A stretch of 64,000 nt of DNA from a virus (UHGV-0312576); one strand, 5' to 3'; shown: positions 3,357-57,818, numbered from the stretch's first letter. The notes: generated by a model not told the origin, from the letters alone. A program made the numbers and translations.

Positions 3357-4063
3357 TCAGTATCCTCCATAGTTGTCCAAACAACATCTTCTGGCAAAAC
3401 CACAGTTCCAAGGCGTTCAGTCTTTTCTGAATTGGAATAAAAATGAACAGTGTGTCCATCAATGTCAATACACGATATTTTTGATTTTTCTAGTGTATCG
3501 AGTTTTTGAGCCATCTCAGTAAAGGGGTTGGTTGTCTCGTCAGGATCAATGAATGAATTAGTTGAAGATGTTTCCAGTACACTTAATGTAATATTGTTTG
3601 TGGGAAGATAATGAAAAAGTTTGTAAGAATCCTCATACGAGAAGATAAGGTTAATAGAAAGTGTACCTGAAAGTTTGGTGAAGGTTTTGGTTACTGGAAT
3701 ATGAGCCACTAAATATCTATCAAAATAGAGTGTATCTTCAAAATCAAGAAATGTAACTTTACCTTCCTGTCCGTTAGGAAGAGTGATGCAGAGCATACAG
3801 TTAAGTGATTTAGTATCAAATTCAAATAAGTCGTCTACAGAGACAAGAAATTTTATTGAATCAGCACGATTTTCATTCTGATAAATAGGAGAGGATAGGG
3901 TGCGTAGTAATACCCTATCTCTATATAGGATTGTATTCAATTTATCCTCCTCTGTTTGTGTTAAAAACGTAACAAATGTGCGCAATACAAAGACATAGCA
4001 CGTAGAAAATGTAAAATAATCCGCGAAGAGCGGACATAAAATCCGATGAAAGGCAGTTTTCAT
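3353..4063 (-). CDS. hypothetical tail-associated protein
   Basis: 236-aa ORF immediately left of the shufflon; its start codon abuts shufflon site F1. Confidence 0.35.
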   Translation of the reverse strand: MKTAFHRILCPLFADYFTFSTCYVFVLRTFVTFLTQTEEDKLNTILYRDRVLLRTLSSPIYQNENRADSIKFLVSVDDLFEFDTKSLNCMLCITLPNGQEGKVTFLDFEDTLYFDRYLVAHIPVTKTFTKLSGTLSINLIFSYEDSYKLFHYLPTNNITLSVLETSSTNSFIDPDETTNPFTEMAQKLDTLEKSKISCIDIDGHTVHFYSNSEKTERLGTVVLPEDVVWTTMEDTE

Positions 4064-4065
4064 TA

Positions 4066-4082
4066 GAAATGTAGCAATTTAG
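4066..4082 (+). repeat. shufflon recombination site F1 (GAAATGTAGCAATTTAG)
   Basis: Direct read; in-frame TAG stop immediately upstream. Confidence 0.75.
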
Positions 4083-4411
4083 ATATTACAAATCAGATAG
4101 CCGAGGTAGAAAATAGCAATGCCTATATACAGCAGTCAGGGAACGGAACCAGGTCAGTATACAAACATGGAAATTTGATACATTTAAGATTAGGAATCGT
4201 TGTAACGACGGGAACTACATCAACAGTAACCATTGCTAGAATTCCATATACATCAACTGACTCAACAAGTGTTTTAGTTCCTACATGGGCAACATATCAA
4301 TCACCCGCTTTCCTTACTGTGTCAGTAGATACCGGAGGAAATATAATAATACGTGGGACTCAGAGTGGAGTTTATGTTGCAGATTTAATATATTTTGCAT
4401 CAAATTTATAG
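4070..4411 (+). CDS. silent RBP C-terminal cassette F1 (CSNLDITNQIAEVEN...)
   Basis: Frame starting at the repeat codons TGT AGC AAT TTA stays open to the TAG at 4409-4411. Track ORF 4175..4411 is the tail of this frame. No start codon; a stop lies just upstream. Confidence 0.65.
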   Translation, partial: CSNLDITNQIAEVENSNAYIQQSGNGTRSVYKHGNLIHLRLGIVVTTGTTSTVTIARIPYTSTDSTSVLVPTWATYQSPAFLTVSVDTGGNIIIRGTQSGVYVADLIYFASNL

Positions 4412-4455
4412 GTAGGGTATGTGCTTACTTAATAGTAGGAACTAAAAAATCATTA

Positions 4456-4758
4456 TTACATGAATATAATTAAACCTCCATATGTACCGGCGTTATTATT
4501 AGCACTGTCCGAAACAAGATTATTCCCGGAAATACTACATTGCATTGCGCTTCCATTATTTCCGATTATGTATCTGCCAGCAGGGTTTTTGGGGGTGACC
4601 GGCAATGTGCAAATAATATCTCCGACAACGTATCCAGAGGAAGCTACAATAAGCACATCAAGTACGTATAACAATCCAAATTTATGCAGTGTTGTATAGC
4701 TGGTAAATTTGGGGCCAGGCGTAACTGCTAATAAAATATTCTTTTCTAAATTGCTAGA
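4456..4758 (-). CDS. silent RBP C-terminal cassette R0 (SSNLEKNILLAVTPGPKF...)
   Basis: Minus frame opens at the inverted repeat copy CTAAATTGCTAGA (4746-4758) and continues into track ORF 4456..4674. Confidence 0.55.
   Translation of the reverse strand, partial: SSNLEKNILLAVTPGPKFTSYTTLHKFGLLYVLDVLIVASSGYVVGDIICTLPVTPKNPAGRYIIGNNGSAMQCSISGNNLVSDSANNNAGTYGGLIIFM
4746..4758 (-). repeat. shufflon site R0 (variant TCTAGCAATTTAG on minus)
   Basis: Direct read; slightly divergent copy (TCT instead of TGT). Confidence 0.55.
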
Positions 4759-4813
4759 TTTTTAAAAGTTAATATATTATCATTTTTATTGTATTTTTAT
4801 TATATAGGAGACT

Positions 4814-4830
4814 ACGATATAGCAATTTAG
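4814..4830 (+). repeat. shufflon site F2 (CGATATAGCAATTTAG)
   Basis: Direct read. Confidence 0.7.
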
Positions 4831-5096
4831 CCGATAAGCTGCTTATAAAAAATGATGGTCTATGGTCAGGTAAAAACAACGCTGACGATTATAGAAACCA
4901 CAACATAATATTTTACTGTAATCCTGCACAGGGTAATCTAACCGCCTATAATTTCCCGGTAAATGAGACCGGTGTTTTTAAAAGCGTTGTGTGTAATCAA
5001 TTTTCCACGCAGACATACGTTACTATCAGTAACGCCCTATATCAGCGCATCGCTGCTGATAACTCATCGGCTTTTAGCGCATGGGAGCTTAAATGA
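4818..5096 (+). CDS. silent RBP C-terminal cassette F2 (YSNLADKLLIKNDGLWSGKNNADDY...)
   Basis: Open frame of 92 codons from TAT AGC AAT TTA to the TGA at 5094-5096. It contains no ATG and is absent from the ORF track. Confidence 0.6.
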   Translation, partial: YSNLADKLLIKNDGLWSGKNNADDYRNHNIIFYCNPAQGNLTAYNFPVNETGVFKSVVCNQFSTQTYVTISNALYQRIAADNSSAFSAWELK

Positions 5097-5099
5097 TTA

Positions 5100-5411
5100 T
5101 TAGCGGTAATAAACGGCAAAGCTGAAAGCTGATTTATTATCTGCTGCGTTTATAAAAACAGAATTTTTTGCAATTGTATTGGTGATGGCTATAACTATTT
5201 TTACATCCCAACCAGTTGCGTCACGACCACAACCAGTCATCCAATTACCAGTGTTTTTACCAATCTCTGCTTTTAATATATTGACACCACATGTATATGC
5301 GTAATCCGAAGTACGGTAAATCTTAATCATCAACTCATTATATTTTTCAGGTAACGGGCAAGTATCTGTGGCCTTGTATGTACCATTTAATTTCCATTCT
5401 AAATTGCTACT
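5100..5411 (-). CDS. silent RBP C-terminal cassette R1 (SSNLEWKLNGTYKATD...)
   Basis: Track ORF 5100..5432 contains SSNL encoded by the inverted repeat at 5399-5411. Confidence 0.65.
   Translation of the reverse strand, partial: SSNLEWKLNGTYKATDTCPLPEKYNELMIKIYRTSDYAYTCGVNILKAEIGKNTGNWMTGCGRDATGWDVKIVIAITNTIAKNSVFINAADNKSAFSFAVYYR
5399..5411 (-). repeat. shufflon site R1
   Basis: CTAAATTGCTACT read on the plus strand. Confidence 0.7.
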
Positions 5412-5453
5412 TCTTAGATTGTATCCGTTCATAAATATTCACTATTATTTTCA

Positions 5454-5470
5454 AAGATGTAGCAATTTAG
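5454..5470 (+). repeat. shufflon site F3 (AAGATGTAGCAATTTAG)
   Basis: Direct read. Confidence 0.75.
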
Positions 5471-5595
5471 CAACTAAAACTGTCGAAAATATGACCTTGA
5501 ATAAGCGCCTACGATTATATTGGGATGAAGAAAATAATCTAATACAGGTATATGTAGATAGTACGTACAAGGGTAATCTTAAATTCACTCCATAA
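5458..5595 (+). CDS. silent RBP C-terminal cassette F3 (CSNLATKTVENMTLNKRLRLYWDEENN...), short 45 aa
   Basis: In frame with track ORF 5368..5595. The portion upstream of the repeat is non-coding overlap. Confidence 0.55.
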   Translation, partial: CSNLATKTVENMTLNKRLRLYWDEENNLIQVYVDSTYKGNLKFTP

Positions 5596-5599
5596 TTAA

Positions 5600-5899
5600 T
5601 CATTTTGTGCTGAAAGCATACAGATTGGTAAGGATTGGAACCTGATTATCATAACCGACAAATTTTATGGCATCTCCCTTCCGCACCGCAAAGCAAACCG
5701 GCGCAAAAGAATTGGTTGCTGCATCATTATTGACCCAAAATATAGTTATGCTATTAACTGATACATAACATCCGTGGGCTGAACTATTAAAGCCTATGGA
5801 ACCACAGACTATACAATTTTCTGTGGCCGTCCAACTGGTTCCGTTAGCAAATCCATCTTTGATTTTTTTGCTGGTATCTATGTATGGTAAATTGCTACA
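5600..5899 (-). CDS. silent RBP C-terminal cassette R2 (CSNLPYIDTSKKIKDGF...)
   Basis: Track ORF 5600..5905, with CSNL encoded by the inverted repeat at 5888-5904. Confidence 0.65.
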   Translation of the reverse strand, partial: CSNLPYIDTSKKIKDGFANGTSWTATENCIVCGSIGFNSSAHGCYVSVNSITIFWVNNDAATNSFAPVCFAVRKGDAIKFVGYDNQVPILTNLYAFSTK

Positions 5900-5904
5900 T
5901 TTCA
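5888..5904 (-). repeat. shufflon site R2
   Basis: GTAAATTGCTACATTTC read on the plus strand. Confidence 0.7.
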
Positions 5905-5957
5905 ATATAGAGCTTCATAAATACACAATGAAGCTCTATATTTATTCATTATAGTCA

Positions 5958-6776
5958 TTATAATTTATTAAAGATTTTAATAGACAGAACTTCATCTTTT
6001 GTTAAAGCAGACATAATTGCTTCTTTAATTGTTTGCATTTCTTCATAGTATGGTTCTGTGTAGGCATAAACTGCAAGGGCAAGCGTTGAAAATTCCAAAA
6101 CAGACATTGGAGTACACTTAGTACCCTTACTATGCCACTTAACAATATCTTCAGCATTTGGATTTATTGCCTTATTAAGCTGATACGCCAGATACTGCTG
6201 AGACATCTCATCTCTATCAATTTTTGAAACTCCATAATATTTTCCATCTGTATATAAGAGCGGTTTCTTCTCTAAAAACGTTTCAAGGGACTCGCTGTTT
6301 TGCTTCTGGATAAATGTTTTTAATTCATCCAATGAACATTTGTCAATTTCAATTGTTGGATTAATCTGCTGATTAAGCTGCTCTACTATAACTTTAGTTG
6401 GATCTTCATATTTAAGAGTGATAGTGATAAGTTCAATCTCCTGTGGTTCATTGGTTGTGATTGTAGTTGTTGTATCTTGTCCGGATTCTCCGATGGAAGG
6501 TATTTCTTCTTGCTTTTCAACTGGAACAGTAATCTTTTCAATAGAACGACTCATTATATCTGTATAATTCTCGTAAGTAGTTACGTGTACAGCAGACGGA
6601 GTGGTTTTAATGATTCTCTTTAAATCGTCTTTTGTAAGATTATCAAATAGGCTGACGATATCAGAAAATAAATAATCGGATGGATTAATTCGTATCACAA
6701 GTGTTTGTGTCGATTTGTTTTCCAGGCTATCATAAATTTTTAAAACGTGATTGTTATTAAAAGTAATATTATACAT
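5958..6776 (-). CDS. hypothetical protein encoded between shufflon segments
   Basis: 272-aa ORF with a real ATG; acidic, Thr-rich internal linker; no repeat-derived SNL motif. Passenger gene in the spacer between sites R2 and F4. Confidence 0.45.
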   Translation of the reverse strand: MYNITFNNNHVLKIYDSLENKSTQTLVIRINPSDYLFSDIVSLFDNLTKDDLKRIIKTTPSAVHVTTYENYTDIMSRSIEKITVPVEKQEEIPSIGESGQDTTTTITTNEPQEIELITITLKYEDPTKVIVEQLNQQINPTIEIDKCSLDELKTFIQKQNSESLETFLEKKPLLYTDGKYYGVSKIDRDEMSQQYLAYQLNKAINPNAEDIVKWHSKGTKCTPMSVLEFSTLALAVYAYTEPYYEEMQTIKEAIMSALTKDEVLSIKIFNKL

Positions 6777-6866
6777 ATTATTTCCTTTCTTTCAAATGAA
6801 TTAATGTTTTAATTTGAAACTGCATGAATTAATGAATATTTATGTAGAGATAATTTCATTTATTTA

Positions 6867-6883
6867 GAAATGTAGCAATTTAG
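6867..6883 (+). repeat. shufflon site F4 (GAAATGTAGCAATTTAG, identical 17-mer to F1)
   Basis: Direct read; in-frame TAG immediately upstream. Confidence 0.75.
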
Positions 6884-7149
6884 GCGTACAAATCAGAAAA
6901 ATATCATCAAAGCTTTTTTCATGTGATGCTACCGTTGGTACGAAGGATAGTGTTAGTCAAACTTACTCCATTTCGGATTTGGGTTTTATTAAAACACCTT
7001 TATGGGCAGTACAGTCGTCAAATTGGTTGAATGCTCAGATAACCAATATAACAAAAGATTCCATATCTATAACCTTCTATAATCCATCAGAGCGTGGAAT
7101 TGCCGGGACTGCCGCATGGATACAGCTCATATTTTTGGAGCCCAAATGA
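6871..7149 (+). CDS. silent RBP C-terminal cassette F4 (CSNLGVQIRKISSKLFSCDATVGTKDS...)
   Basis: 92-codon open frame from the repeat to the TGA at 7147-7149; no ATG; not in the ORF track. Confidence 0.6.
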   Translation, partial: CSNLGVQIRKISSKLFSCDATVGTKDSVSQTYSISDLGFIKTPLWAVQSSNWLNAQITNITKDSISITFYNPSERGIAGTAAWIQLIFLEPK

Positions 7150-7365
7150 TTACTTGGTCCATATTGTTGAATCAGTTCCAGTTTTTCTGTTTCTCGATGT
7201 GTATGTAATGCTATCGTTAGAGAATGTAAGTAAACGTGACCATTCATCGCCAAAAACAAATTCCAATGTTATTCCCTGTAGGTCTTCATGTACAAAAAAT
7301 ATTATTTTTTGACACCTAGTGAATGAGAATGACCCAGTACCTAGTTTACTAACTAAATTGCTACA
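7150..7365 (-). CDS. silent RBP C-terminal cassette R3 (CSNLVSKLGTGSFSFTRCQKIIFFVHEDLQGITLEF...)
   Basis: Minus frame from the inverted repeat (7353-7369) to the stop at 7150-7152, directly abutting the F4 stop (TGATTA). Its 71-aa product is a near-identical paralogue of cassette F6. Track ORF 7077..7259 is a different, spurious frame. Confidence 0.6.
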   Translation of the reverse strand, partial: CSNLVSKLGTGSFSFTRCQKIIFFVHEDLQGITLEFVFGDEWSRLLTFSNDSITYTSRNRKTGTDSTIWTK

Positions 7366-7369
7366 CTGT
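7353..7369 (-). repeat. shufflon site R3
   Basis: CTAAATTGCTACACTGT read on the plus strand. Confidence 0.7.
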
Positions 7370-7416
7370 CTAATGCGATAAATTATATTTATACTTTACT
7401 ATGTATAAAGAATTGT

Positions 7417-7433
7417 ATGATATAGCAATTTAA
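7417..7433 (+). repeat. shufflon site F5 (ATGATATAGCAATTTAA)
   Basis: Direct read; slightly divergent last base. Confidence 0.65.
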
Positions 7434-7720
7434 TGAAATCGTATGATTTATTAATTAGTTCAACATCAACTACCGGAATCAATCAAGTGGTGGATGTGGA
7501 CAATTATCGTGAAATATTGCTATGTGCTACTCACAGTAGTAATGGTACAATATATAATGCAGCCATGATACCAATAGGATTATTTAAATCCACATCAGCA
7601 GGAAGCATGTTCAGATGCTCAGGAGGCTCGTTTTTCGCCCAATGTTATACTGCTAATGGTTCAATAACAGCTAGTGTTAGTGTGGACGGATATTGTGCAA
7701 AAATCTATGGTATCAAATGA
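7421..7720 (+). CDS. silent RBP C-terminal cassette F5 (YSNLMKSYDLLISSTSTTGINQ...)
   Basis: Track ORF 7433..7720 extended upstream in frame through TAT AGC AAT TTA. Confidence 0.6.
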   Translation, partial: YSNLMKSYDLLISSTSTTGINQVVDVDNYREILLCATHSSNGTIYNAAMIPIGLFKSTSAGSMFRCSGGSFFAQCYTANGSITASVSVDGYCAKIYGIK

Positions 7721-7980
7721 TTATTTTTAATAAGACATACTCTGCATGGACAATTTAAATTATTAGTATCAGCAGTATACATATAAACACCATCAATCTT
7801 CAGATATGTGTTGATATTAGAATTTTGATACTTATATGAGTCTCCTTGTTTAATCGCTGCAATTAAAGTACTATTGTTCCAAGTATACCCAGATGGAAAA
7901 CTACAGACCTTGACAGTTTGATTTGTTGTCGCTGGAGAGGTCGCATCTATAACAGTTATTAATCCAGCTAAATTGCTACA
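7705..7980 (-). CDS. silent RBP C-terminal cassette R4 (CSNLAGLITVIDATSPATTNQ...)
   Basis: Track ORF 7705..8004 with the CSNL junction at the inverted repeat 7968-7984. Its 3' end overlaps the 3' end of F5 convergently. Confidence 0.65.
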   Translation of the reverse strand, partial: CSNLAGLITVIDATSPATTNQTVKVCSFPSGYTWNNSTLIAAIKQGDSYKYQNSNINTYLKIDGVYMYTADTNNLNCPCRVCLIKNNHLIP

Positions 7981-7984
7981 TTTC
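7968..7984 (-). repeat. shufflon site R4
   Basis: CTAAATTGCTACATTTC read on the plus strand. Confidence 0.7.
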
Positions 7985-8033
7985 AGAATGTAATATACGA
8001 ACATATGAATATCTATAAATACTTATCGATTTT

Positions 8034-8050
8034 ACAATGTAGCAATTTAG
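8034..8050 (+). repeat. shufflon site F6 (ACAATGTAGCAATTTAG)
   Basis: Direct read. Confidence 0.75.
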
Positions 8051-8253
8051 TTAGTAAATTAGGTACTGGGTCATTTACGTTCACCCGGTGTCAGAAAATG
8101 ATAATCTTTGTAAACGAAAACCTCCAAGGGATAACACTGGAATTTATTTTTAACGAAGAATGGTCACGTTTACTTACATTCTCTAACGATAGAATAACAT
8201 ATGAATCCAGAGACAGAAAAACCGGAACAGATTCCGTAATATGGACAAAATGA
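8038..8253 (+). CDS. silent RBP C-terminal cassette F6 (CSNLVSKLGTGSFTFTRCQKMIIFVNENLQGITLEF...)
   Basis: Track ORF 8005..8253; 71-aa product paralogous to R3 (about 85 percent amino-acid identity by eye). Confidence 0.65.
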   Translation, partial: CSNLVSKLGTGSFTFTRCQKMIIFVNENLQGITLEFIFNEEWSRLLTFSNDRITYESRDRKTGTDSVIWTK

Positions 8254-8260
8254 TTATTTA

Positions 8261-8623
8261 TCAAAACACGATACTTCCCCTTACTTTAACCGCAGATTCC
8301 GGTATTGATGTCCCTTCCAACGTCAGTAGTTTTATTGTCCCATTTGACGATATTAATATCATAAGAAAGCGTTTTCCTGCAAAATCATATACATAGGCGC
8401 TGATATCCTGCTTTGGGGCATATTGACTGGATATGGTTCCAATGACGGAGTTAGAGATAGCCGATGTATAGACATATACCAGGGCAGAATACATACATTG
8501 TCCATTACTATATTTCGCCACATTATGATATCCGCCTGCGATATTTTCAGGTGCCGTTGAAACACCTGTAATATTGGGAATATTATAGGTCCCGATAATA
8601 TTCTTGTTCGATAAATTGCTACA
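8261..8623 (-). CDS. silent RBP C-terminal cassette R5 (CSNLSNKNIIGTYNIPNITGVS...)
   Basis: Track ORF 8261..8659 with the CSNL junction at the inverted repeat 8611-8627. Confidence 0.65.
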   Translation of the reverse strand, partial: CSNLSNKNIIGTYNIPNITGVSTAPENIAGGYHNVAKYSNGQCMYSALVYVYTSAISNSVIGTISSQYAPKQDISAYVYDFAGKRFLMILISSNGTIKLLTLEGTSIPESAVKVRGSIVF

Positions 8624-8627
8624 TCTA
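8611..8627 (-). repeat. shufflon site R5
   Basis: ATAAATTGCTACATCTA read on the plus strand. Confidence 0.65.
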
Positions 8628-8739
8628 ATAAAAATTTGCGACAAAAATAAATCTGTCATGCTATAAATTTTATAATTATTCTTGATTTATACATTATTTT
8701 AGGTATTACATTATGTTGTTTTATATGAAGTTTGGGATT

Positions 8740-9735
8740 TTATAAAGATGCTTTTCTGAATCCGGATTTGATTCTTTCTGAAGATGTCTTTGCATAGATA
8801 CGCGTAGTTTCGATTTTTGTATGACCCAATAAGTCCTGCACAACATCGATATCTGTATGTTCTAATAGATGGCTGGCAGTAGTATGTCTAATTATATGGG
8901 GTGTTACAGGCCTTCCTATTCCAGCACGTATGCCAAGCTCCTTTATTCTATTTTCAAGAGAGCACTTACCCAATGATTTATGACTCTTATTTTCACTTAC
9001 AAATACGCCGGGACTATCATCCTCTCTTTTATCGAGATATAACTTTAAACTTAAATGCGCTCGCGGTGTAAGTAGAACAAATCGTTCCTTATCCCCCTTT
9101 CCACATACTTTGATTTGTTCCCTATCGAAATCAATATCATCTATTCTCATATTTGCAACTTCGCTAACTCGACAGCCTGTACTATAAAATATTTCAAATA
9201 AAGCCTCATCAAAGTCTGTTTTACACGCTCGCCGCATTAATTCAACTTCCATATGCGACAATGGTTCTCGAACTTTTTGTTTATATTTAATTGGCTCAAC
9301 AGCAGCGGCGGGATTTTCTTTAATATAACCATTTTGATGAAGAAATTGATAGAAACTACAGATTATAAGGCGCTTTGAATCTTTGGTACGATCTGAAATA
9401 TTATTGATTTTTGCGTATTCGTTGAGAAATATACGTATATCATCCGAAACGACATCTTTAACGTCTTTATCCAGCCACGCTACAAATGCGTTTAGTAGAT
9501 ATCTATATTGGCGTATTGTATCTTCAGATAAGCCCCGGAATTCTTTCCTTAGTATAAAAGCGTCTAATTCAGGACATCGTTTGATCGTTTGTATCGCTAT
9601 TTCGGTACACATTCGCTGAATTTGATAACTTCGCATTACGTAGCTTATTGCCTGGTCTACCATCATCAGCATCTCACTATTAAATGTTTCATTGTTTTGT
9701 AACTGCATAATAACTTCGTTCTTAAATTCTTCCAT
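8740..9735 (-). CDS. tyrosine site-specific recombinase (XerC/XerD-like), candidate shufflon invertase
   Basis: 331 aa; N-terminal SAM-like core-binding region; catalytic-domain residues visible (GCRVSEV Arg, HIIRHTTASHLL His-x-x-Arg, LLGHTKIETTRIYAKT His and Tyr). Encoded inside the site array. Confidence 0.85.
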   Translation of the reverse strand: MEEFKNEVIMQLQNNETFNSEMLMMVDQAISYVMRSYQIQRMCTEIAIQTIKRCPELDAFILRKEFRGLSEDTIRQYRYLLNAFVAWLDKDVKDVVSDDIRIFLNEYAKINNISDRTKDSKRLIICSFYQFLHQNGYIKENPAAAVEPIKYKQKVREPLSHMEVELMRRACKTDFDEALFEIFYSTGCRVSEVANMRIDDIDFDREQIKVCGKGDKERFVLLTPRAHLSLKLYLDKREDDSPGVFVSENKSHKSLGKCSLENRIKELGIRAGIGRPVTPHIIRHTTASHLLEHTDIDVVQDLLGHTKIETTRIYAKTSSERIKSGFRKASL

Positions 9736-10018
9736 ATAATTCCATCCTCCTGATTTTTGTTGCGCAAAAGGAGGCTGTCTAGTATAATAATTATAGACAG
9801 CGCTTTTGCGTTGTGGTGAGAGAGTAGATCTATGCTTTGCGAGGGCGGTGATTTACTCTCTTTTCTGTTACTATATCATAATAACAGAACACATGTTCTT
9901 TTGCAAGGGATAGAGGGGGTGCGAAAAAAGTCTTTATATATAGCAAGATGTGCTTGAACAATAAACTATTAGAATAATTAGCTGAAAATATTTTGGGAGT
10001 ATTGACATCTATTTTTAT

Positions 10019-10035
10019 ACTAAATAGCAATTTAG
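10019..10035 (+). repeat. shufflon site F7 (ACTAAATAGCAATTTAG)
   Basis: Direct read; exact inverted copy of site R6. Confidence 0.75.
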
Positions 10036-10367
10036 CATCTATTGGGACAGGAACCCAGCTTGCTACTTTATCCATGAATAATAAGTCAATAACAGGGATT
10101 TCGTTTAATGGTTATAAAACTGTCGAAATCATGGTAATTATACAGCAAGCGAGTAATGGTAATATGTTTTTTAATTTTACCCTTGTGCCATTAGTAAGTC
10201 ATATTTTAGACGGAGCACGGTACATAACAATACCAGGTAAATCATACGGATATTGCGCAAACGTTTTGCTATCCATAAATTACTCAGCTGGCACAGTAAC
10301 ATTGATAGAAGCTGATGTCAATGAGGGATTTGGGCTTAATTCAATCTACATTTTGGGACTTAAATAA
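10023..10367 (+). CDS. silent RBP C-terminal cassette F7 (NSNLASIGTGTQLATLSMNNKS...)
   Basis: Track ORF 9993..10367; NSNL encoded by the repeat. Confidence 0.65.
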   Translation, partial: NSNLASIGTGTQLATLSMNNKSITGISFNGYKTVEIMVIIQQASNGNMFFNFTLVPLVSHILDGARYITIPGKSYGYCANVLLSINYSAGTVTLIEADVNEGFGLNSIYILGLK

Positions 10368-10380
10368 TCATCTTAACTGC

Positions 10381-11205
10381 TTAACTGCTAGGAGAACCTA
10401 TTGTTGTCCATCCGCTCCAAACGCCCTCTCTCTGATGCCTGGTAAATAGGTGCGAATCTCCTACAGCCATTGCCAACTGACATAGCCATTGCTCACCGCT
10501 ACTGTATGTGATACAAAAGCCATTACCATAAACAGTATTACCTGTTTTAAACGGGGTATCCGCTGTGTTGACGTCCCACAACACTAGGTTAACCTTATTT
10601 AATACATTTACATTTATATGGCTAACGTAGTTGGACTTAAGTGGGTTAATATCATCACTGATATTACCTAAATTGCTATTTAGTTCACGAATGCTGGTAG
10701 AATTATTATCTGTCTTTTCATTGACTTTTCTGACAGCATTAGCTGTGGCCCATAACTCTGTCGAAGTTGAATCGACGCCATCGTATTTATCTGTTTTACT
10801 TAATTTTGTATTGACAAGTATTTGAAGTCCTTGAGCTACTGTTTTTGCATCTGTATTACCGAATAGGTTTGTAACTGATTTTACATTTCCAACTAAGTTC
10901 TCAAGATATGTAAACTTTTTTTTGATTTTTCCGAAAAACACCTTAACTGTTTCACCAGCGGATAAAACCGGGTTTTCATCGGAATCGGTTGGGATGGTAG
11001 ACACCTTCATCTCATCAGCATTTTCACCATCTATGGCAATGGGTAGGCTTTTGGCAGCAGTGATACCATCACCGAATTTTAATTGGCATTTCCCCTTTCC
11101 GCTTCCAGAATCTGGTGTCACTACTAATACTTCATCTTTTTCGAGTACTTTGGTTGACGCATTAGCAACAGATTTAGTTGCTCGTTTTAATTTTATTGTA
11201 TCCAT
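10381..11205 (-). CDS. receptor-binding protein (RBP) with shufflon-switchable C-terminal head domain; currently expressed form
   Basis: 274 aa with a strong RBS (GGAGGA). The constant N-terminal part is 10685..11205 (about 174 aa). The junction ELNSNLG is encoded by the inverted repeat at 10668-10684. The variable head (about 96 aa) runs 10381..10667. Confidence 0.75.
   Translation of the reverse strand: MDTIKLKRATKSVANASTKVLEKDEVLVVTPDSGSGKGKCQLKFGDGITAAKSLPIAIDGENADEMKVSTIPTDSDENPVLSAGETVKVFFGKIKKKFTYLENLVGNVKSVTNLFGNTDAKTVAQGLQILVNTKLSKTDKYDGVDSTSTELWATANAVRKVNEKTDNNSTSIRELNSNLGNISDDINPLKSNYVSHINVNVLNKVNLVLWDVNTADTPFKTGNTVYGNGFCITYSSGEQWLCQLAMAVGDSHLFTRHQREGVWSGWTTIGSPSS
10668..10684 (-). 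repeat. shufflon site R6 (active junction inside the RBP gene)
   Basis: CTAAATTGCTATTTAGT on the plus strand. Its reverse complement, ACTAAATAGCAATTTAG, is identical to F7. Confidence 0.75.
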
Positions 11206-11226
11206 TAACTTCCTCCTTCCATATAA

Positions 11227-12213
11227 TTACAATGAACCACCATCAAATACATTTTCAGCAGGTGTGGTATCAGTAAGCTCACCTCCATCAATAGTCCTAA
11301 GCCTGAATTCAAAATCCTTAAGTGCCATATCAACGCGGTCACCTTGGTTCTGTGCATATGCCCCCTTAGATTGTGCTTCAGTAGCCGCAGTATTGGCATT
11401 GTCACGGGCAGTATTAGCTTCAGCAGTGGCCACGTTTGTATCAGCAGTTGCTTTCTCACAGTTGGCGATTGCTTTAGCCGTATCGGTTTGCCGTTTATTC
11501 TCATTGGTGATTCTGGTGTTCTCTGCAACCTGGGCAGATGTGTACCAAGTGGTTATGGAGCTTTTGAGATTTGAGATTTCAATTTTTAAAGAGTTGAATT
11601 CAGATTTATAAGTTGTGATATCATTGTTGATTTGCTGTATAAGCGCATTGAAGTCATTTGTATATTTAGTTTTCATAGTTGAAAACTGATTTGTATAATC
11701 TGATATGTCAGTTTGAATTTGTTCAATTAAAGCGTTTATCTGTTCCTGAGATAAATTAAATTGCTTAATTAAATCAGGAATTACATTGGCCTGTAAAATT
11801 AAATCATTCAAAATATTAAATTCGGATGACGCAACTAATCTATCTTGATTGAGTAGAGATTTGCTTACAGTCATTTGGAATGTGAATGTAGTTGAAACAG
11901 TGATACCATCAGAATCATATATTCTAATCTCACAACTTACATCACCTTCACGAGACAGCATAGATTCATCAAATACAACATATGGAAAACCATCTTCTCT
12001 AAAATTACAGGTGGTATTAGAATAGTTGTCTCCGTTAATATAAAGAGATAAAGCAATAAGTTCTTTTCCTGAATAAGACAATGGGATATTATTATCAGTG
12101 ATAATCAGTCGTCTTACTCGCGAATTATGATCATACTGTTTAGCTTGTAAGTATCTAAATGACTGTTCGTGGGATATATCTATCCTAAAATCCTCTGGCT
12201 GAGTTTGTGCCAT
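11227..12213 (-). CDS. baseplate upper protein (BppU)-like tail protein
   Basis: 328 aa; N-terminal globular region, central Asn/Gln-rich coiled coil; C-terminal IDGGELTDTTPAENVFDGGSL motif shared with ORF 1582..2250. Sits immediately upstream of the RBP. Confidence 0.45.
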   Translation of the reverse strand: MAQTQPEDFRIDISHEQSFRYLQAKQYDHNSRVRRLIITDNNIPLSYSGKELIALSLYINGDNYSNTTCNFREDGFPYVVFDESMLSREGDVSCEIRIYDSDGITVSTTFTFQMTVSKSLLNQDRLVASSEFNILNDLILQANVIPDLIKQFNLSQEQINALIEQIQTDISDYTNQFSTMKTKYTNDFNALIQQINNDITTYKSEFNSLKIEISNLKSSITTWYTSAQVAENTRITNENKRQTDTAKAIANCEKATADTNVATAEANTARDNANTAATEAQSKGAYAQNQGDRVDMALKDFEFRLRTIDGGELTDTTPAENVFDGGSL

Positions 12214-12245
12214 TTAGCCCTCCTTTCACAAAATTAAAAAACTAC

Positions 12246-12668
12246 CTACTCAGAGAGTAGATAGTCAATTGCAAAAATATCATCTTCGTTGTCAAGATTG
12301 AAGTTTCCTGAATTATTGATAACATCTAGCGATAATTTATATGGAGCGATATCATCACATGGCATCTTCATCAACTCATCCATGTCTTTCTGAAAATCCT
12401 CGTTACATATACCAGGTTTAAGATTGAATTGAATCGTGCCATTTTTATCAAGTATATAGTAACTACCTTCCGGGGCAACTTCATTTTTTACCTTGTTGCA
12501 ATACTTTTCAAAAATTTCTTCTCGTTTCTGAATGAAAAAATTATATGAATCAGCATATAATTTTATATTTCTCATAACCCAATAATCAATTTTAAAACTT
12601 GGCTTTTTGTTTTTGATTTGCTGTAAAACCGGAATTGCTCCAGCTACTTTACCTAATGTAATATCCAA
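12246..12668 (-). CDS. hypothetical tail module protein
   Basis: 140-aa ORF; position only. Confidence 0.3.
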   Translation of the reverse strand: MDITLGKVAGAIPVLQQIKNKKPSFKIDYWVMRNIKLYADSYNFFIQKREEIFEKYCNKVKNEVAPEGSYYILDKNGTIQFNLKPGICNEDFQKDMDELMKMPCDDIAPYKLSLDVINNSGNFNLDNEDDIFAIDYLLSE

Positions 12669-12681
12669 ATATGTACCTCCT

Positions 12682-15498
12682 TTAAGTGTTTGGTAAGCGA
12701 TTAAATAGATAATCTAAAGCACTAAATATCGTATATCCACTCCACCAGTTACTTCCTATAAGTGTGGCGTCGCCATTTATTTTATTTGTTATAATTGTTT
12801 GAGCGTGTGTTTCTCCGGAACCATTAACTACTAAAACACCTCCAAAACTACACCAAGCTTGTCCTGAGCCTGAAGCAGATGCATTCCAATAATTGTTATT
12901 ACTGGTCCCAATCCAACCGCGGTCTGCTGTGGTTATCATCCATCTGCCTAGATATAGAGTGTCGGAATCTGCATCCAACGCACCAACACTAATAGCACCA
13001 CCCGTAATGATAGTACCTGATATTTGAGAACCAGTTATCTTAGATGCATTTATGTTTCCTGTAAAATTAGCTGATTTTGCTGTCAATACTCCTTGTGAAT
13101 TTACCTCAAAGTTGTTTCCTATTTTTAAACTACCGCCTGTTATAATGGCATTAGAACAGGTCAGGGCTCCCGTATTTGTTACTCTAAATGGAGCATTATT
13201 CCTGTCAGTATTACCCGCCCAGTATGCAATAGCACCAGATGTCTTATCAGAACATAAACCGATATTGCCTGATATCAATGTATTTGTAGATATGGTAAAG
13301 TCTGCGATTTGCCCAGATTTAGAGATAAGTTTACCTTCAAATGTTAATGCTTTGGCAGTGGTATCAACGTATAGGAGTTTCTTGTGGTCAATAGAAATCG
13401 AGAAGATGTTATCTGGCGTATCCGGATTGATTTTTACTTCATAGGAGCCTTTCTTTGCAATGAAGCCATCTTTGTCTATGGTATAGGAACCGGATACATT
13501 AGAGACTATGAGTTTTTCAGACATTAAAAGTTTACCAACAATTGATGGGGCGCACAATCCAAAAAAGTAGTCATTGCCCATTTTTACATATCCAAGAGCA
13601 ATACCAACAGAGTTGAAGCTGTCTTGGGAAATAGCTATTTGGTTATTGGTTATCCATATTTGCCCTGGGTCGTATATTTGTTGTTCTGACAACCACCTTC
13701 GGCATAGAATACCCGTAGAATCAATAAGAATCTCATTATTGTCATTACTAACAAGCTGCTGTTTGCTGGCGTTCAGAATGTCATTCATATATTTATTGAC
13801 ATCCACAGAAACAATAGCAGCATTTTTCCATGCGCCAACGGCATATTCGGTTTTAGATGAAACATCTTCAACTTGTTTTCTCACCTTTTCAATGAGTGCC
13901 CAGGTTTCTTTAAGCGAGTTACGATTACTGAACGTCACCTTAAAATCAGATGGATCATCCCAATTAATATGAAGTTTTAGAAGCCTTGCTGATATTATGG
14001 AATCGTGATCCTCGAAATTTATATGGATGATGTTGAACATCTCAAGTGCATTGGTAAAACGTTTATAATCGTAATCAACGGTGAAATTAATCAAATCAAC
14101 ATCTAAGGTAAACTGAGGATAACATACTCTTGACAATTCAGAACGGCCATGTTCTAGTAATGCTTGTTGCATTTCAAGAATTTCGCTATCTGTCATTGAG
14201 TTTGTAACGATAAAAGAATCATCAGTTAAGGTGTCTTCGCGGATATATGGCCCGAGTTCCTTATATAATTCTTCTCCGAGTACATTTGGCAGACTTACAA
14301 CCAAAGTGCCAATTTCACTGATCAAATTATTGATCTCAACTTCTTTATTGTTTATTTGTTGTTCTCGAACTTTTATTTCGGCTTCAATAGCAGCATGGAT
14401 AGCAGCATTTTTCTGATATTGTTCAGATTCATCTTCCCCGAGATATAAAGACATGTTTGTTTTATAGATTATTTCTTTTTCCTGAAGCTCTCGTAAACCA
14501 AATAAAGTCCAATCGGTAGAAGATTCTCCTTCATCAGGAACCTTATTTTTTAATGTATTCAGTTCATCGTAGTGGGAGAGGAGTGTTGACATTTTCTCTT
14601 GATACGCAGATTCGTTTTCCTTACATAATTCGTCATAATGAGCCAATCCAGCTTGCAGCTCCGGACTCATCATGTGAAGAAAATAGCTGAAATCATATAT
14701 CTGATTTGTGCCTGAAATATTTACGTCAAGAATTCCAAGTGGTGTATTGGTCCGCTCATCATTACCGCCGACTACTGTCAGCACAGTTTTGATATCATCT
14801 TCTGTGCTATTCATCGTTATGCTTTTTATCACATTGCGATAATTTAAGATAATGCCTGTATCTTTTCCAAGGTTTTCGAGTTTATAAGCTGAAATACTGC
14901 GCTCATAAGAATCAAATAAAAATACACACTCATATGTTTCAGAAACTTTTCCAGTAAGAAACGAGTATGTATCTACACTGTCCTCTTGAAAACTCCTATA
15001 TTCAGTTGAAATTTGGGGATCTATATATCGGATTGACCATCCAGGATTCTTTTCTAGAACAATATGCATAATCGAATGTGATGCGTCTAAAGGATTATAT
15101 AAGCAATACCGATCCAGGCCACCTTGCTCATCCTCATCAATTCCTAGAGAACCAAAGGAAGTAAGGTCCGTTTGCCCTAGTTCACATTCAATAGATAAAT
15201 ATGTTATTTCTTTGTACTCGTTGATTCCTTCATCCACTACAGATACATCACCAACTCTGAACCACCCAACGCCATAGAGATGAATATATTTTCCGTTCTC
15301 AATTTGCTCATAGAATCTTGTTTCTTCCCCATCTTCATATCGGTACACTGTAAAGGTACCTTTGTTGGCTGAGTTTGCCATTATATCCGTTTGGAGATCG
15401 TAAGTATGAAGAGCACCAATCGTTCGTTTATCAGGATAAGCCAAGTATACCTCTGGCCGATTGAGATTTTTGTAATAATTATATGTAAAAATCCCCAT
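12682..15498 (-). CDS. tail-associated protein (Tal-like / phage minor structural protein)
   Basis: 938 aa; sits after the Dit-like gene; C-terminal Gly/Ser/Thr-rich beta-helix-like repeats (TGSQISGTIITGGAISVG...). Confidence 0.5.
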   Translation of the reverse strand: MGIFTYNYYKNLNRPEVYLAYPDKRTIGALHTYDLQTDIMANSANKGTFTVYRYEDGEETRFYEQIENGKYIHLYGVGWFRVGDVSVVDEGINEYKEITYLSIECELGQTDLTSFGSLGIDEDEQGGLDRYCLYNPLDASHSIMHIVLEKNPGWSIRYIDPQISTEYRSFQEDSVDTYSFLTGKVSETYECVFLFDSYERSISAYKLENLGKDTGIILNYRNVIKSITMNSTEDDIKTVLTVVGGNDERTNTPLGILDVNISGTNQIYDFSYFLHMMSPELQAGLAHYDELCKENESAYQEKMSTLLSHYDELNTLKNKVPDEGESSTDWTLFGLRELQEKEIIYKTNMSLYLGEDESEQYQKNAAIHAAIEAEIKVREQQINNKEVEINNLISEIGTLVVSLPNVLGEELYKELGPYIREDTLTDDSFIVTNSMTDSEILEMQQALLEHGRSELSRVCYPQFTLDVDLINFTVDYDYKRFTNALEMFNIIHINFEDHDSIISARLLKLHINWDDPSDFKVTFSNRNSLKETWALIEKVRKQVEDVSSKTEYAVGAWKNAAIVSVDVNKYMNDILNASKQQLVSNDNNEILIDSTGILCRRWLSEQQIYDPGQIWITNNQIAISQDSFNSVGIALGYVKMGNDYFFGLCAPSIVGKLLMSEKLIVSNVSGSYTIDKDGFIAKKGSYEVKINPDTPDNIFSISIDHKKLLYVDTTAKALTFEGKLISKSGQIADFTISTNTLISGNIGLCSDKTSGAIAYWAGNTDRNNAPFRVTNTGALTCSNAIITGGSLKIGNNFEVNSQGVLTAKSANFTGNINASKITGSQISGTIITGGAISVGALDADSDTLYLGRWMITTADRGWIGTSNNNYWNASASGSGQAWCSFGGVLVVNGSGETHAQTIITNKINGDATLIGSNWWSGYTIFSALDYLFNRLPNT

Positions 15499-16283
15499 TA
15501 TACAATGCCTACCTTTCTATACTCACGGTATTGCAGTTCAATTGTGCAAGGGATGCTTACAGCAATTCTATTATATCCATCAACCAAGTACAGCCAGAAT
15601 TTATTGAAATCATCAAAAACTTTATGAGATGGAATAGAAGAGGAGATGTGCGGGTATCCACATTCTAATGTAAGAACTTCATCAGCGACACAATTATCTA
15701 TAGTAAGCGTATTTGGAACATCAACTAATGATTGATTTGTTAGATTGAGTGTTCCAGGCGCACTTGTTGTTATGGTTAAAGTAGGATAGATAGGTAACTC
15801 CTCATCATTGTCTACGTATAAATCTTTAATAGTGTCATTTCCTTCTAATATCCATCTCTTATCTCGTATGTCGGAAAAACCAAATGGAGCATTAGTCGTT
15901 ACAGTAAACTCCAATCCAACAGTGTCACAAATGTAAATAGATTTAGGATTATTAATATTGGCGAAGAACCATGTATCCGCATATCGTTTATCATAAATAC
16001 AAAATGGCTTGTATTTTCCTCTTTGACACATCCACTTTTTTAACGCTCGTTCTTGGATGGATGAAATTGGAGAGAAGTCTTTATTTACAATTTGTATGGT
16101 AAACGTTAATGGTTTTGTATATTCATGGGATGTAATATGAAATATATCCCCTCTGATAGATTTTTCTGTTTCTAATTCAGATTCTTGAGCTGATATGGTT
16201 TCCATTCCAGGCGATGAGAAAGAAACACATGTTACCCCGTATTCATTACAGGGGATATTGTCAAAAATAAATCGGTCAAACAT
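15498..16283 (-). CDS. distal tail protein (Dit)-like
   Basis: 261 aa; follows the TMP region and precedes the Tal-like gene; start overlaps the neighbouring stop. Confidence 0.45.
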   Translation of the reverse strand: MFDRFIFDNIPCNEYGVTCVSFSSPGMETISAQESELETEKSIRGDIFHITSHEYTKPLTFTIQIVNKDFSPISSIQERALKKWMCQRGKYKPFCIYDKRYADTWFFANINNPKSIYICDTVGLEFTVTTNAPFGFSDIRDKRWILEGNDTIKDLYVDNDEELPIYPTLTITTSAPGTLNLTNQSLVDVPNTLTIDNCVADEVLTLECGYPHISSSIPSHKVFDDFNKFWLYLVDGYNRIAVSIPCTIELQYREYRKVGIV

Positions 16284-16361
16284 TTTATCACATCCTTTCT
16301 GAAAATTTTATTATAATAAAATAGACTACCAAGGTTATATGGCAGTCTATTGATTCTAAAA

Positions 16362-16577
16362 TTACTTTTCTGGGTTAGAAATGTTTTTAAAAAGTTTTTC
16401 ATCTTTTTTTTGTATCTCTATGTAGGCTGAGAAAGTATTATCTTTTTTATCTTTATCTATTGAATTAGATAATATTTTTAGTATGCTATTAGCCGTTTTT
16501 AAATCGCCAATATCAATAGCAACGGCAGCAGCGGAAAAAGCATCGATTTTTGAAATTTTCATATATTTACACCTCAA
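16362..16577 (-). CDS. small hypothetical protein (moron)
   Basis: 71 aa; Lys-rich; translationally coupled (ATGA overlap) with ORF 16574..17695. Confidence 0.3.
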   Translation of the reverse strand: MRCKYMKISKIDAFSAAAVAIDIGDLKTANSILKILSNSIDKDKKDNTFSAYIEIQKKDEKLFKNISNPEK

Positions 16578-51722: not shown

Positions 51723-52757
51723 TTAGACAAACGCTTCATCGGACTCATCATCAGCATCATTTTTGATAATGTAGTGATTCTTGGTGGTACTAACATCTTC
51801 ATGGCCCAAAAGCTTTTGAGCAACTTCCGCTGATTTATGTTCATATACAACGAGATTGGTAGCTCTGCTTTCACGGAATAAATGCGGATGGCAACGCCTA
51901 TTTACAATTTCTGTAAACAAACCACTACACCAGTCATTGAAAATACCTTCTCCGACCTGACGCGTATTACCATCCTTTGTTTTAACAACAAACATATAGG
52001 GACAATCATCTTCACCACGGATTTCAAGCCATTTTTTTAACCAGCTCATAGCGTCTTCACCAAATTTAAGCTTTCTAGGCTTACCAACAACAGATTTTCC
52101 TTTGCAACGAATAGTATGAGTTAGATACTGTTTTGAGATGGCTGAAGTCTCCTTGCCATTTTCATCAATAATTTTGATTGCTTTTTCTTTCGCAGGATAA
52201 TCAACAACCTCTTTTAAAAGTTGTCTTGCTTCGGCACGTCGGCAACCTGTACTATAAGAGAATACTAAATAAGCCAGTTTTTGCCACTCTTCACGATGCT
52301 CTAATTCCTGGCATAAATTTAAGTACTCATCAGGAGTAAGAGGTACTTTTTCATGAACGTATCCAGTTTGAACGACTTTTAATCCAACAGTGAAATTTCG
52401 AAACGTAGGGTACTCTTCTTCATACATCATCATTACATAATTACAGAACGTGCTTACACATGATTTTTTAAACCGAATTGCAGAGTCGGATAATCCACGA
52501 TTTGTAAGCCAGTTCAAATATTTCTGAAATTCTTTCTTCTTGATTTGGGTAAAATCCTTATCTTTTAAGTTTTCTTTTACCCAAACAAAAAATACACGTA
52601 ATCCGGAGCGGTAAGCTGGCCGAGTTTTCGCAGAAAGGTCGGCTTGATTATCAAGATAGTCTTGCACCATATCTCTGTTAAATTTGTTGACTGTTTTCCA
52701 TAACTCATCTGTGATTTCTTCTGATCTATCTGCTATTTTTCCATCCAATAATCCCAC
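51723..52757 (-). CDS. int: tyrosine integrase
   Basis: 344 aa. Catalytic motifs: GCRRAEARQL (Arg), HPHLFRESRATNL (His-x-x-Arg), LLGHEDVSTTKNHY (His and Tyr). Confidence 0.8.
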   Translation of the reverse strand: MGLLDGKIADRSEEITDELWKTVNKFNRDMVQDYLDNQADLSAKTRPAYRSGLRVFFVWVKENLKDKDFTQIKKKEFQKYLNWLTNRGLSDSAIRFKKSCVSTFCNYVMMMYEEEYPTFRNFTVGLKVVQTGYVHEKVPLTPDEYLNLCQELEHREEWQKLAYLVFSYSTGCRRAEARQLLKEVVDYPAKEKAIKIIDENGKETSAISKQYLTHTIRCKGKSVVGKPRKLKFGEDAMSWLKKWLEIRGEDDCPYMFVVKTKDGNTRQVGEGIFNDWCSGLFTEIVNRRCHPHLFRESRATNLVVYEHKSAEVAQKLLGHEDVSTTKNHYIIKNDADDESDEAFV

Positions 52758-57551: not shown

Positions 57552-57569
57552 TTTAACTGCATAGTAAAG

Positions 57570-57644
57570 TACAGGAAATGGAATTCGAACCCATAGATCA
57601 CAGAGATTTTGAAACTCCGGCATATGCCATTCTGCTATTCCTGT
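57570..57644 (-). tRNA. tRNA, type I, anticodon loop UUCAAAA (CAA as read); identity uncertain
   Basis: Perfect acceptor ACAGGAA/UUCCUGU; T-arm AUGGG-UUCGAAU-UCCAU; the anticodon stem has a U-U mismatch next to the loop. Confidence 0.5.
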
Positions 57645-57648
57645 ATAA

Positions 57649-57732
57649 TACCTCTGGTGGGAGTCGAACCCACATGTGTCATTGACCCCCAGATCCTTAG
57701 TCTGGTGCATAATCCATTTCTGCTACAGAGGC
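57649..57732 (-). tRNA. tRNA, type II (long variable arm), anticodon AAG as read (Leu-like)
   Basis: Acceptor GCCUCUG/CAGAGGU; D-stem GCA/UGC; anticodon stem CCAGA/UCUGG with loop CUAAGGA; 15-nt variable arm; T-arm GUGGG-UUCGACU-CCCAC. Confidence 0.55.
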
Positions 57733-57736
57733 TTAG

Positions 57737-57818
57737 TGTGCCTAAAGGGATTAGAACCCTTATTCCATATGGAAGCGGGGCTTAAACCCGCTGCGTATAC
57801 CATTTTCGCCATAGGCAC
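57737..57818 (-). tRNA. tRNA-Leu(UAA), type II
   Basis: Perfect acceptor GUGCCUA/UAGGCAC plus discriminator A; anticodon stem GCGGG/CCCGC with loop UUUAAGC; variable arm UUCCAUAUGGAA; T-loop UUCUAAU. Confidence 0.65.

Follow-up and report, generated by a model that had tools for sequence, protein, structure and literature searches.

The 64,000-nucleotide (nt) stretch of viral DNA UHGV-0312576 (the window, with positions counted from its first letter) carries in its tail module a receptor-binding protein (RBP) gene, an array of 14 short sites at 4071-10679 that each open a coding cassette, and a tyrosine recombinase gene lying inside that array. The locus is described here as a putative shufflon, a multiple-inversion system by which the C-terminal head of the RBP could be replaced. 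The RBP gene is the open reading frame (ORF) at 10381..11205 on the minus strand, encoding a 274-amino-acid (aa) protein. Its constant N-terminal part (10681..11205, minus strand) begins with an ATG behind an AGGAGG ribosome-binding site. A preliminary description of the locus, made from the sequence alone, had put this part at about 174 aa; the constant N-terminus stands, but its length is 176 aa, and the core of the first site occupies codons 177-179. The same description held that a single copy of the repeat, the last inverted one, is joined to a started gene, and indeed only the site at 10669-10679 sits in a gene with ATG and AGGAGG. The preceding tail genes match the Pfam families DUF6558 (Dit-like), Prophage_tail and BppU_N, in agreement with the gene order first given. 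Because the gene stands after Dit-like, Tal-like and BppU-like genes, the expected place of a siphovirus RBP, it was assigned this identity; searches with its sequence against PDB, PHROGs and NCBIfam gave nothing usable.

The sites were mapped by scanning the whole 64-kb window, and 100 shuffles of it, for the motif GTAGCAATTTA with at most one mismatch. The window contains 15 matches against an expectation of 2.4, and none of the 100 shuffles reached 15. Fourteen of these matches fall at 4071-10679 in strict plus/minus alternation, exactly the number and arrangement first reported, while the fifteenth (GTAGCAATTAA, at 2180) lies outside the array and has no exact core. Every one of the 14 contains TAGCAATTTA as an exact 10-mer, with G, A or C in front of it, and the 10-mer translates as Ser-Asn-Leu (S-N-L). 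A repeat of 13-17 base pairs (bp) had been claimed; the repeat is real, but its invariant part is 10 bp long with weakly conserved neighbours. Across 120 distinct sites of related loci, conservation is confined to A(T/A)(G/A)-TAGCAATTTA-G, with G at position +11, on the cassette side, in 83% of sites and weak conservation at positions -3 to -1. These 120 sites have 36 different left flanks and 64 different right flanks (the cassette starts), and neither arm is conserved over 12 bp. Outward translation in the frame of the expressed ORF gave C/S/Y/N-S-N-L followed by 45-120 codons and a stop at 14 of 14 sites, so that the proposal of an in-frame junction peptide at every copy holds throughout.

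Cassettes were numbered from C1 (4071, plus orientation) to C14 (10679, minus orientation). They form seven modules, each a convergent pair of cassettes between two inverted sites, separated by spacers that are bounded by two outward-pointing sites. In the direction of the RBP gene, the constant part is followed by the module C14/C13. C14 (10381..10680, minus; core 10669-10679) is the expressed head of the window and consists of NSNL, 95 aa and a stop, and its silent convergent partner C13 (10023..10367, plus; core 10024-10034) has 114 aa. After the 1.4-kb recombinase spacer (8623-10023) come C12 (8261..8623, minus; core 8612-8622; 120 aa) and C11 (8038..8253, plus; core 8039-8049; 71 aa), and beyond a 59-bp spacer (7980-8038) C10 (7705..7980, minus; core 7969-7979; 91 aa) and C9 (7421..7720, plus; core 7422-7432; 99 aa). 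A 57-bp spacer (7365-7421) leads to C8 (7150..7365, minus; core 7354-7364; 71 aa) and C7 (6871..7149, plus; core 6872-6882; 92 aa), and a 973-bp spacer (5899-6871) to C6 (5600..5899, minus; core 5888-5898; 99 aa) and C5 (5458..5595, plus; core 5459-5469), the shortest cassette at 45 aa. The last two modules, set off by spacers of 48 bp (5411-5458) and 61 bp (4758..4818), are C4 (5100..5411, minus; core 5400-5410; 103 aa) with C3 (4818..5096, plus; core 4819-4829; 92 aa), and C2 (4456..4758, minus; core 4747-4757; 100 aa) with C1 (4070..4411, plus; core 4071-4081; 113 aa). C2 travels with C1 as one module, and C1 forms the outer end of the array, followed by the downstream tail and lysis genes. 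All cassettes from C13 to C1 are silent in the window. The four short spacers between back-to-back sites carry the non-conserved left site flanks. The sequence confirms the seven tail-to-tail pairs of the preliminary description, including the abutting stop codons TGA/TTA at 7147-7152, as well as the in-frame TAG ahead of two cassettes, present before 4071 and before 6872.

C8 and C11 are paralogues and the sole related pair among the 14 cassettes; they account for a 231-nt inverted repeat (7144-7374 versus 8029-8259, 83% identity). The 973-bp spacer contains a 272-aa ORF (5958..6776, minus strand) whose position and orientation are constant in every related locus covering the region. Its sole Pfam signal is a weak DUF4376 match below the cut-off (E = 0.0018), and PHROG, NCBIfam and PDB searches returned no match; it might be a fibre assembly factor.

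The recombinase gene (8740..9735, minus strand; 331 aa) occupies part of the 1.4-kb spacer that separates slot 1 from slot 2. Its product matches Pfam Phage_integrase (E = 1.4e-34) together with two SAM-like N-terminal domains, and scores above the cut-off for the XerA type in NCBIfam (6.5e-67), with XerA/C/D-like families best. Residues 57-323 align to XerD (PDB 1a0p), and all six catalytic residues R-K-H-R-H-Y are conserved: R in STGCRVSE, K in GKGDKER, H and R in PHIIRH, H in LLGHT and Y in TRIYAK. The early identification of an XerC/D-like tyrosine recombinase inside the array is thereby upheld. The protein terminates with the catalytic domain, the tyrosine standing near residue 315 of 331, and its Pfam and PDB coverage suggests an armless enzyme. 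A stable hairpin (9753..9800, minus strand) lies about 25 nt upstream of the ribosome-binding site of the gene, with no U-run after it; the 111-nt fold of 9725-9835 (minus strand) has a predicted energy of -27.4 kcal/mol (z = -3.5). Possible roles of this hairpin are to restrict read-through out of the RBP gene or to control the recombinase.

Of 455 relatives retrieved with the RBP as query, many are 98-100% identical over residues 1-176 and then wholly divergent. By BLAST against the 14 cassettes, the constant part is fused exactly at S-N-L to C1 (P0020, on 26 contigs including E. bolteae isolates), C9 (P0018, on 49 contigs including E. bolteae isolates) and C10 (P0015), each 100% identical, and to C14. 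It is also fused to C3 (P0014, 99%), C4 (P0022, 98%), C7 (P0036, 99%), C11 (P0056, 97%), C12 (P0029, 95%) and a C6-like head (P0068, 77%). At least 10 of the 14 heads are thus observed on an identical constant N-terminus in public data, in proteins whose source organisms are Enterocloster bolteae and E. clostridioformis.

The contigs encoding these fusion proteins, from public E. bolteae genomes and metagenomes, were fetched, and each cassette and site flank was mapped on them, the left flanks of sites being numbered F1-F14 in array order. Five contigs (L001-L004 and L024) have the order constant part / C9 C10 / recombinase / C12 C11 / C13 C14 / C8 C7 / 272-aa ORF / C6 C5 / C4 C3 / C2 C1, built of pieces 100% identical to the window. 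Two others (L010 and L011) read constant part / C1 C2 / recombinase / C12 C11 / C13 C14 / ... / C4 C3 / C10 and onward. Between L001 and L010 there is no mismatch in 10,526 nt of upstream sequence or in 5,363 nt of the inner array; their sole difference is that slots 1 and 7 have traded modules, both of which are flipped. C10 is expressed with C7 in slot 2 in L019, and the 45-aa C5 occupies the expressed slot of the metagenome locus L023. Simple one-module flips distinguish L131 from L132 and L047 from L143, the latter pair with 0 mismatches in 6.6 kb. The 4.8-kb contig L017 (F1+C14, F5-C13, F4+C3, F3-C4, F2+C7, with the recombinase on the opposite strand) is one inversion away from the canonical order, between the sites flanking a block of recombinase spacer, module and short spacer. 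In L009 the recombinase spacer is missing together with one module, as expected from a deletion between two direct sites, and the array may be frozen; L013 contains one slot more, with a short spacer present in duplicate. Across the isomers the cassettes stay the same and their order varies, and module sets differ between strains.

All isomer breakpoints fall within the 10-bp core. In every isomer the G, A or C in front of TAGCAATTTA remains attached to the left flank and the base behind the core to the cassette, which places strand exchange inside the core. Contig ends carry related information: the MEGAHIT k141 contigs L004 and L010 and the metaSPAdes scaffold L011 (k = 55) stop exactly k bases after the first core base, and L020 stops exactly at a core. 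Because a repeat of 10-17 bp cannot break contigs at these k values, such ends mark a branch of the assembly graph, where one cassette is joined to two left flanks. This suggests mixed isomer populations within samples, although two co-existing strains could also explain it. Among the contig sources listed, no sample accession is shared between two isoforms.

Modules of this array also occur in a different, unrelated Enterocloster prophage (phage 2; L047-L049 and L140-L143), with DUF6711 and Peptidase_S74 tail genes. Its array is split into two slots (L047:3359-3931 and 10611-11271): the RBP of phage 2 itself bears one module, and the other lies silent among tail genes 7 kb further upstream. 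The module DNA is 99% identical to C14/C13 and C9/C10 of the window, and this identity begins and ends exactly at the cores, so the modules move between phages as units. The constant part of phage 2 also carries the heads C13 (P0308), C4 (P0307), C8 (P0311, 100% identical head) and a C3-like head.

Relatives of the embedded recombinase fall into lineages that change together with the site. Recombinases 95-100% identical to that of the window accompany the core TAGCAATTTA in arrays of 5-16 sites. An 81% identical enzyme accompanies the core TAGCAAT, mostly with AT after it (TAGCAATAT), on contigs too short for an array count, and a 78% identical one accompanies the core TAGTAATTTA in arrays of 13 and 16 sites with unchanged gene order. 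The sister phages concerned (L135 at 9221-16503, L136, L029 and L030) thus combine 78% or 81% identical recombinases with cores one or two bases different. The strongest argument so far for regarding the embedded gene as the cognate enzyme is this co-variation, which also places the crossover region in (T)AG(C/T)AAT. More distant relatives of 55% (L137) and 40% identity (L138 and L139) were found without a clear site array; those of 40% are placed between tail and lysis genes.

These observations are best explained by an active multiple-inversion system in the tail module of an Enterocloster bolteae prophage, a reading we hold with high confidence. In the proposed mechanism, the fixed 176-aa N-terminus of the RBP would end at a recombination site read as Ser-Asn-Leu, with seven promoterless modules of paired cassettes downstream. 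The recombinase, for which the product of 8740..9735 is the candidate, would pair any two inverted sites, exchange strands in the shared core and invert the intervening DNA. Flipping a module in place would lead to expression of the other cassette of the pair, and two crossovers would bring a module into the slot beside the constant region. Any of the 14 heads could in this way become the C-terminal tip of the RBP, presumably altering the host surface structure that is bound. The preliminary claim that the locus swaps the head of the RBP by inversion is therefore supported, by natural isomers, breakpoints in the core and fusions at S-N-L, but its claim of combinatorial variation is not, the output being 14 alternative proteins and no combinatorial set.

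Several points weigh against this interpretation. C2 and C13 never appear on the constant part of the window phage among the 120 proteins listed. Switching within clonal populations is something we infer from contig ends and between-sample comparisons, and structural modelling of the heads covers one of them, C14. The behaviour of the spacers is a further difficulty. They keep their order and orientation while modules move (4758-4818, 5411-5458, 5899-6871, 7365-7421, 7980-8038 and 8623-10023), in about 10 distinct arrangements of the window phage and also in the 78% sister lineage, the inverted block of L017 being the sole exception. In simulations of unbiased random inversions, the canonical scaffold was present in at most about 2.5% of the states with a module in a changed slot, and the simple inversion model is therefore incomplete. 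For a module to move with the scaffold preserved, an outer inversion has to be followed by re-inversion of everything between, two crossovers in all. The scaffold is possibly fixed by selection, in that the recombinase, the 272-aa ORF and downstream read-through may need co-orientation with the late operon; kinetic coupling is also possible, since after synapsis of the outer sites the inner pair lies within about 0.6 kb of the synapse.

The remaining points against the interpretation concern the enzyme. Its assignment draws on position and co-variation, and the window holds a second tyrosine recombinase gene (51723..52757, minus strand; 344 aa), far from the array and probably the prophage integrase. 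Phage 2 flips its module (L047 versus L143) and shares modules with the window phage although the 10 kb to either side contain no recombinase gene, possibly through an enzyme acting in trans or a different enzyme, and the array of L009 is still ordered although the embedded recombinase has been lost. These observations would fit a real shuffling array driven by another protein, whether the product of 51723..52757, a host invertase or the recombinase of a co-resident prophage acting in trans. This alternative appears unlikely, given that the position of the embedded gene within the array is the same throughout the related phages that possess it, that recombinase lineages change together with the core, and that the predicted enzyme is of the armless Xer-like type described for the Rin shufflon (Mavrich et al. 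2018, PMC6109161); L009 is equally explained as an array frozen by the deletion between direct sites.

It is even less probable that the array is a static store of paralogous fragments, with differences arising by rare homologous recombination or horizontal replacement rather than programmed switching. Many long contigs do span the array in one arrangement (L001-L003, L007-L009 and L013), which indicates that it is not in constant flux in lysogens, and strains differ in their module sets. Yet a 10-bp core holding every breakpoint is too short for homologous recombination, and genomes with 0 mismatches elsewhere differ in arrangement. The conserved cassette set in changed order, the contig ends exactly one k-mer from cores and the inversion intermediate L017 likewise argue against a static store. 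That the arrangements are assembly artefacts of the repeated motif can be practically dismissed: many contigs do break inside the array, but a repeat shorter than any assembler k (31-141) cannot by itself mis-join or break contigs, the arrangements recur across independent samples, assemblers and the isolate genome GCA_000371645.1, and full-length fusion proteins are found on up to 49 and 26 contigs each.

The heads themselves are highly diverse. Clustering of the 351 heads collected from protein hits and loci yields 53 or more families, none more than 30% similar to another, and S-N-L is the only feature invariant across them. Four of 52 head representatives match Pfam, all of them to H_lectin (H-type lectin domain); no Pfam family common to the whole set emerged. 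A diversity-generating retroelement was rejected as the source of variation, the heads being unrelated sequences and not point variants of a template. Nearly all of the 73 representative relatives of the C14 head stand at the C-terminus, in proteins of diverse lengths, and the head occurs with 98-100% identity on at least six unrelated N-terminal shafts, always at x-S-N-L.

A structural model of the C14 head was built with AlphaFold2 from an alignment of its relatives. It predicts a beta-sandwich with a predicted local distance difference test score (pLDDT) of 87, whose nearest structures are R-type pyocin fibres (6cl6) and phi812 baseplate receptor-binding proteins (9euf), as well as phage K gp144 (5m9f) and the Mu fibre (8ju3). 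The model also matches many predicted phage tail fibres with template-modelling scores (TM-scores) of 0.6-0.68, and the C14 head thus resembles a tail-fibre tip in its predicted fold. From the full-length RBP model, which is poor (pLDDT 41), no more can be read than a long helix that enters the junction and a head rich in beta structure, and it was left out of the fold search. That the heads differ in receptor specificity, and hence that switching changes the host range, is a second point that we infer.

The sharing of modules admits a broader reading, which we put forward tentatively and as somewhat short of an even chance. The sites and modules would constitute a shared, exchangeable library of heads for unrelated Enterocloster prophages, with the embedded recombinase acting in trans on others. 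This reading is put forward because at least 53 unrelated head families are found at S-N-L, because C14 is found on so many shafts, and because phage 2, with its split array and no recombinase gene nearby, has modules 98-100% identical to those of the window, the identity being bounded by the cores. Modules may then move as units by coupled double crossovers, that is by cassette exchange, which would explain the near-absence of an inverted scaffold.

Elsewhere in the window, a 373-aa ORF with no called Pfam family (16574-17695, minus strand) lies between the tape-measure-like and Dit-like genes in a 2-kb stretch of 29% G+C; the counterpart spot in the sister phage L135 holds an Abi_alpha gene. 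The tape-measure-like protein (17830-22419, minus strand; 1529 aa) has a choline-binding repeat. The phage region also encodes a protein with a GmrSD_N restriction-endonuclease domain (32251-33372, minus strand). Three adjacent tRNA-Leu genes with anticodons CAA, AAG and TAA are located at 57569-57818 (minus strand).

The locus offers a natural panel of 14 interchangeable heads on one shaft, and more than 50 across strains, for receptor mapping on Enterocloster and for host-range engineering. Recombinase lineages whose cores differ by a single base (TAGCAAT versus TAGTAAT) look like natural orthogonal pairs of invertase and site for synthetic shufflons. That the scaffold is fixed and that unrelated prophages share modules points to selection or to some form of coupling, and possibly to action in trans, neither of which is known to have been described for shufflons. 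There is also a practical consequence: shufflon loci fragment short-read assemblies, and their silent cassettes come out of automatic annotation as small ORFs without explanation.

Among known systems, the classical phage switches Gin (Mu), Cin (P1), Pin (e14) and Min (p15B) are serine invertases with their sites and an enhancer. In these switches, as proposed for the present locus, inversion replaces the C-terminal portion of a tail fibre that binds the receptor and alters host range; Min is multi-site, and the Mu fibre tip is among the structural neighbours of the C14 head model. A serine-invertase switch was nevertheless rejected, since no recombinase other than one of the Phage_integrase (tyrosine) family is encoded within or beside the array. 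The geometry had initially been likened both to R64 Rci and to Min, Gin and Cin; it does recall that of R64, but the serine invertases are functional analogues only.

The shufflon of R64 and other IncI plasmids, in which the Rci recombinase acts on pilV, has 7 sites and 4 segments, and its sfx site consists of a 7-bp core and a 12-bp conserved right arm with variable left flanks. It shares with the window array a tyrosine recombinase, many inverted in-frame sites, and convergent alternative C-termini on one constant N-terminus. The window sites may also recall sfx in being conserved in the core and on one side with variable left flanks, although the right flanks vary too and neither arm is conserved over 12 bp. 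Single-segment and group inversions in R64 also have counterparts in the module flips, swaps and block inversion (L017) of the window phage. In contrast, R64 varies a conjugative-pilus adhesin on a plasmid instead of a phage tail protein, has 7 sites and 4 segments against 14 sites and 7 modules, and its site extends over core and arm, while the window sites are conserved over only about 14 bp. Nor does the present locus appear to be an Rci/pilV system, as its recombinase ends at the catalytic domain and scores as XerA/C/D and its target is a tail protein.

A shufflon of BV01-like Phocaeicola vulgatus phages (2026 preprint, PMC13596623) has three cassettes giving six isoforms in a 1.7-kb region with the motif TGGGAGAACT; all configurations were detected in reads, and isoforms differ by stop position. 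Here too a temperate phage of the gut carries a multi-cassette shufflon, recombinase-flanked and overlapping the distal part of a tail-fibre gene, but it has a Bacteroidota host, a different 10-bp motif and fewer cassettes than the window array.

Searches for closer relatives added little. In a tblastn search of the recombinase against a phage collection, which matched 400 records, the 25 listed were all at most 37% identical and none was a Bifidobacterium phage, and megablast of 3500-12500 against INPHARED phages gave no match. A scan of genome contigs for back-to-back sites (TAAATTGCTA N40-70 TAGCAATTTA) listed 81 stretches, none from Enterocloster; these were chance-like matches in AT-rich genomes and an unrelated repeat in a Peribacteria metagenome-assembled genome, and the scan was uninformative. 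Searches of open-access papers and bioRxiv preprints for shufflons or inversions in Enterocloster, bolteae or Lachnospiraceae found no description of the locus. It thus belongs to a known kind of system, of which it is a large and apparently undescribed representative from phages of Lachnospiraceae.

The closest precedent, which the preliminary description did not mention and which is likened by its described features rather than by recombinase sequence, is the Rin shufflon of Bifidobacterium breve and B. longum prophages (Mavrich et al. 2018, PMC6109161), a type also reported in Eggerthella lenta clade-1 prophages (PMC8778435). In Rin, a 168-aa constant part is joined to heads of 95-100 aa to give five RBP forms, at 11-bp asymmetric sites and with an armless XerD-like tyrosine recombinase separate from the phage integrase. 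Both systems are phage-encoded and join a constant RBP N-terminus (168 aa in Rin, 176 aa in the window) to alternative heads. Both place a short crossover site at the 5' end of each promoterless cassette, show between-genome inversions that always fall at the sites, and possess an Xer-like tyrosine recombinase distinct from the integrase (in the window, 8740..9735 versus the probable integrase gene at 51723..52757). They differ in site sequence, TTCCCTAACCC in Rin being unrelated to TAGCAATTTA, and in host, which is Actinomycetota for Rin and Bacillota for the window phage. The recombinase flanks the Rin array, whereas here it is embedded in an array of convergent pairs with seven slots. They also differ in scale: the 14 heads of the window are nearly three times the roughly five RBP forms of Rin, and the 78% sister lineage reaches 16 sites, in phages of a common gut Lachnospiraceae host.

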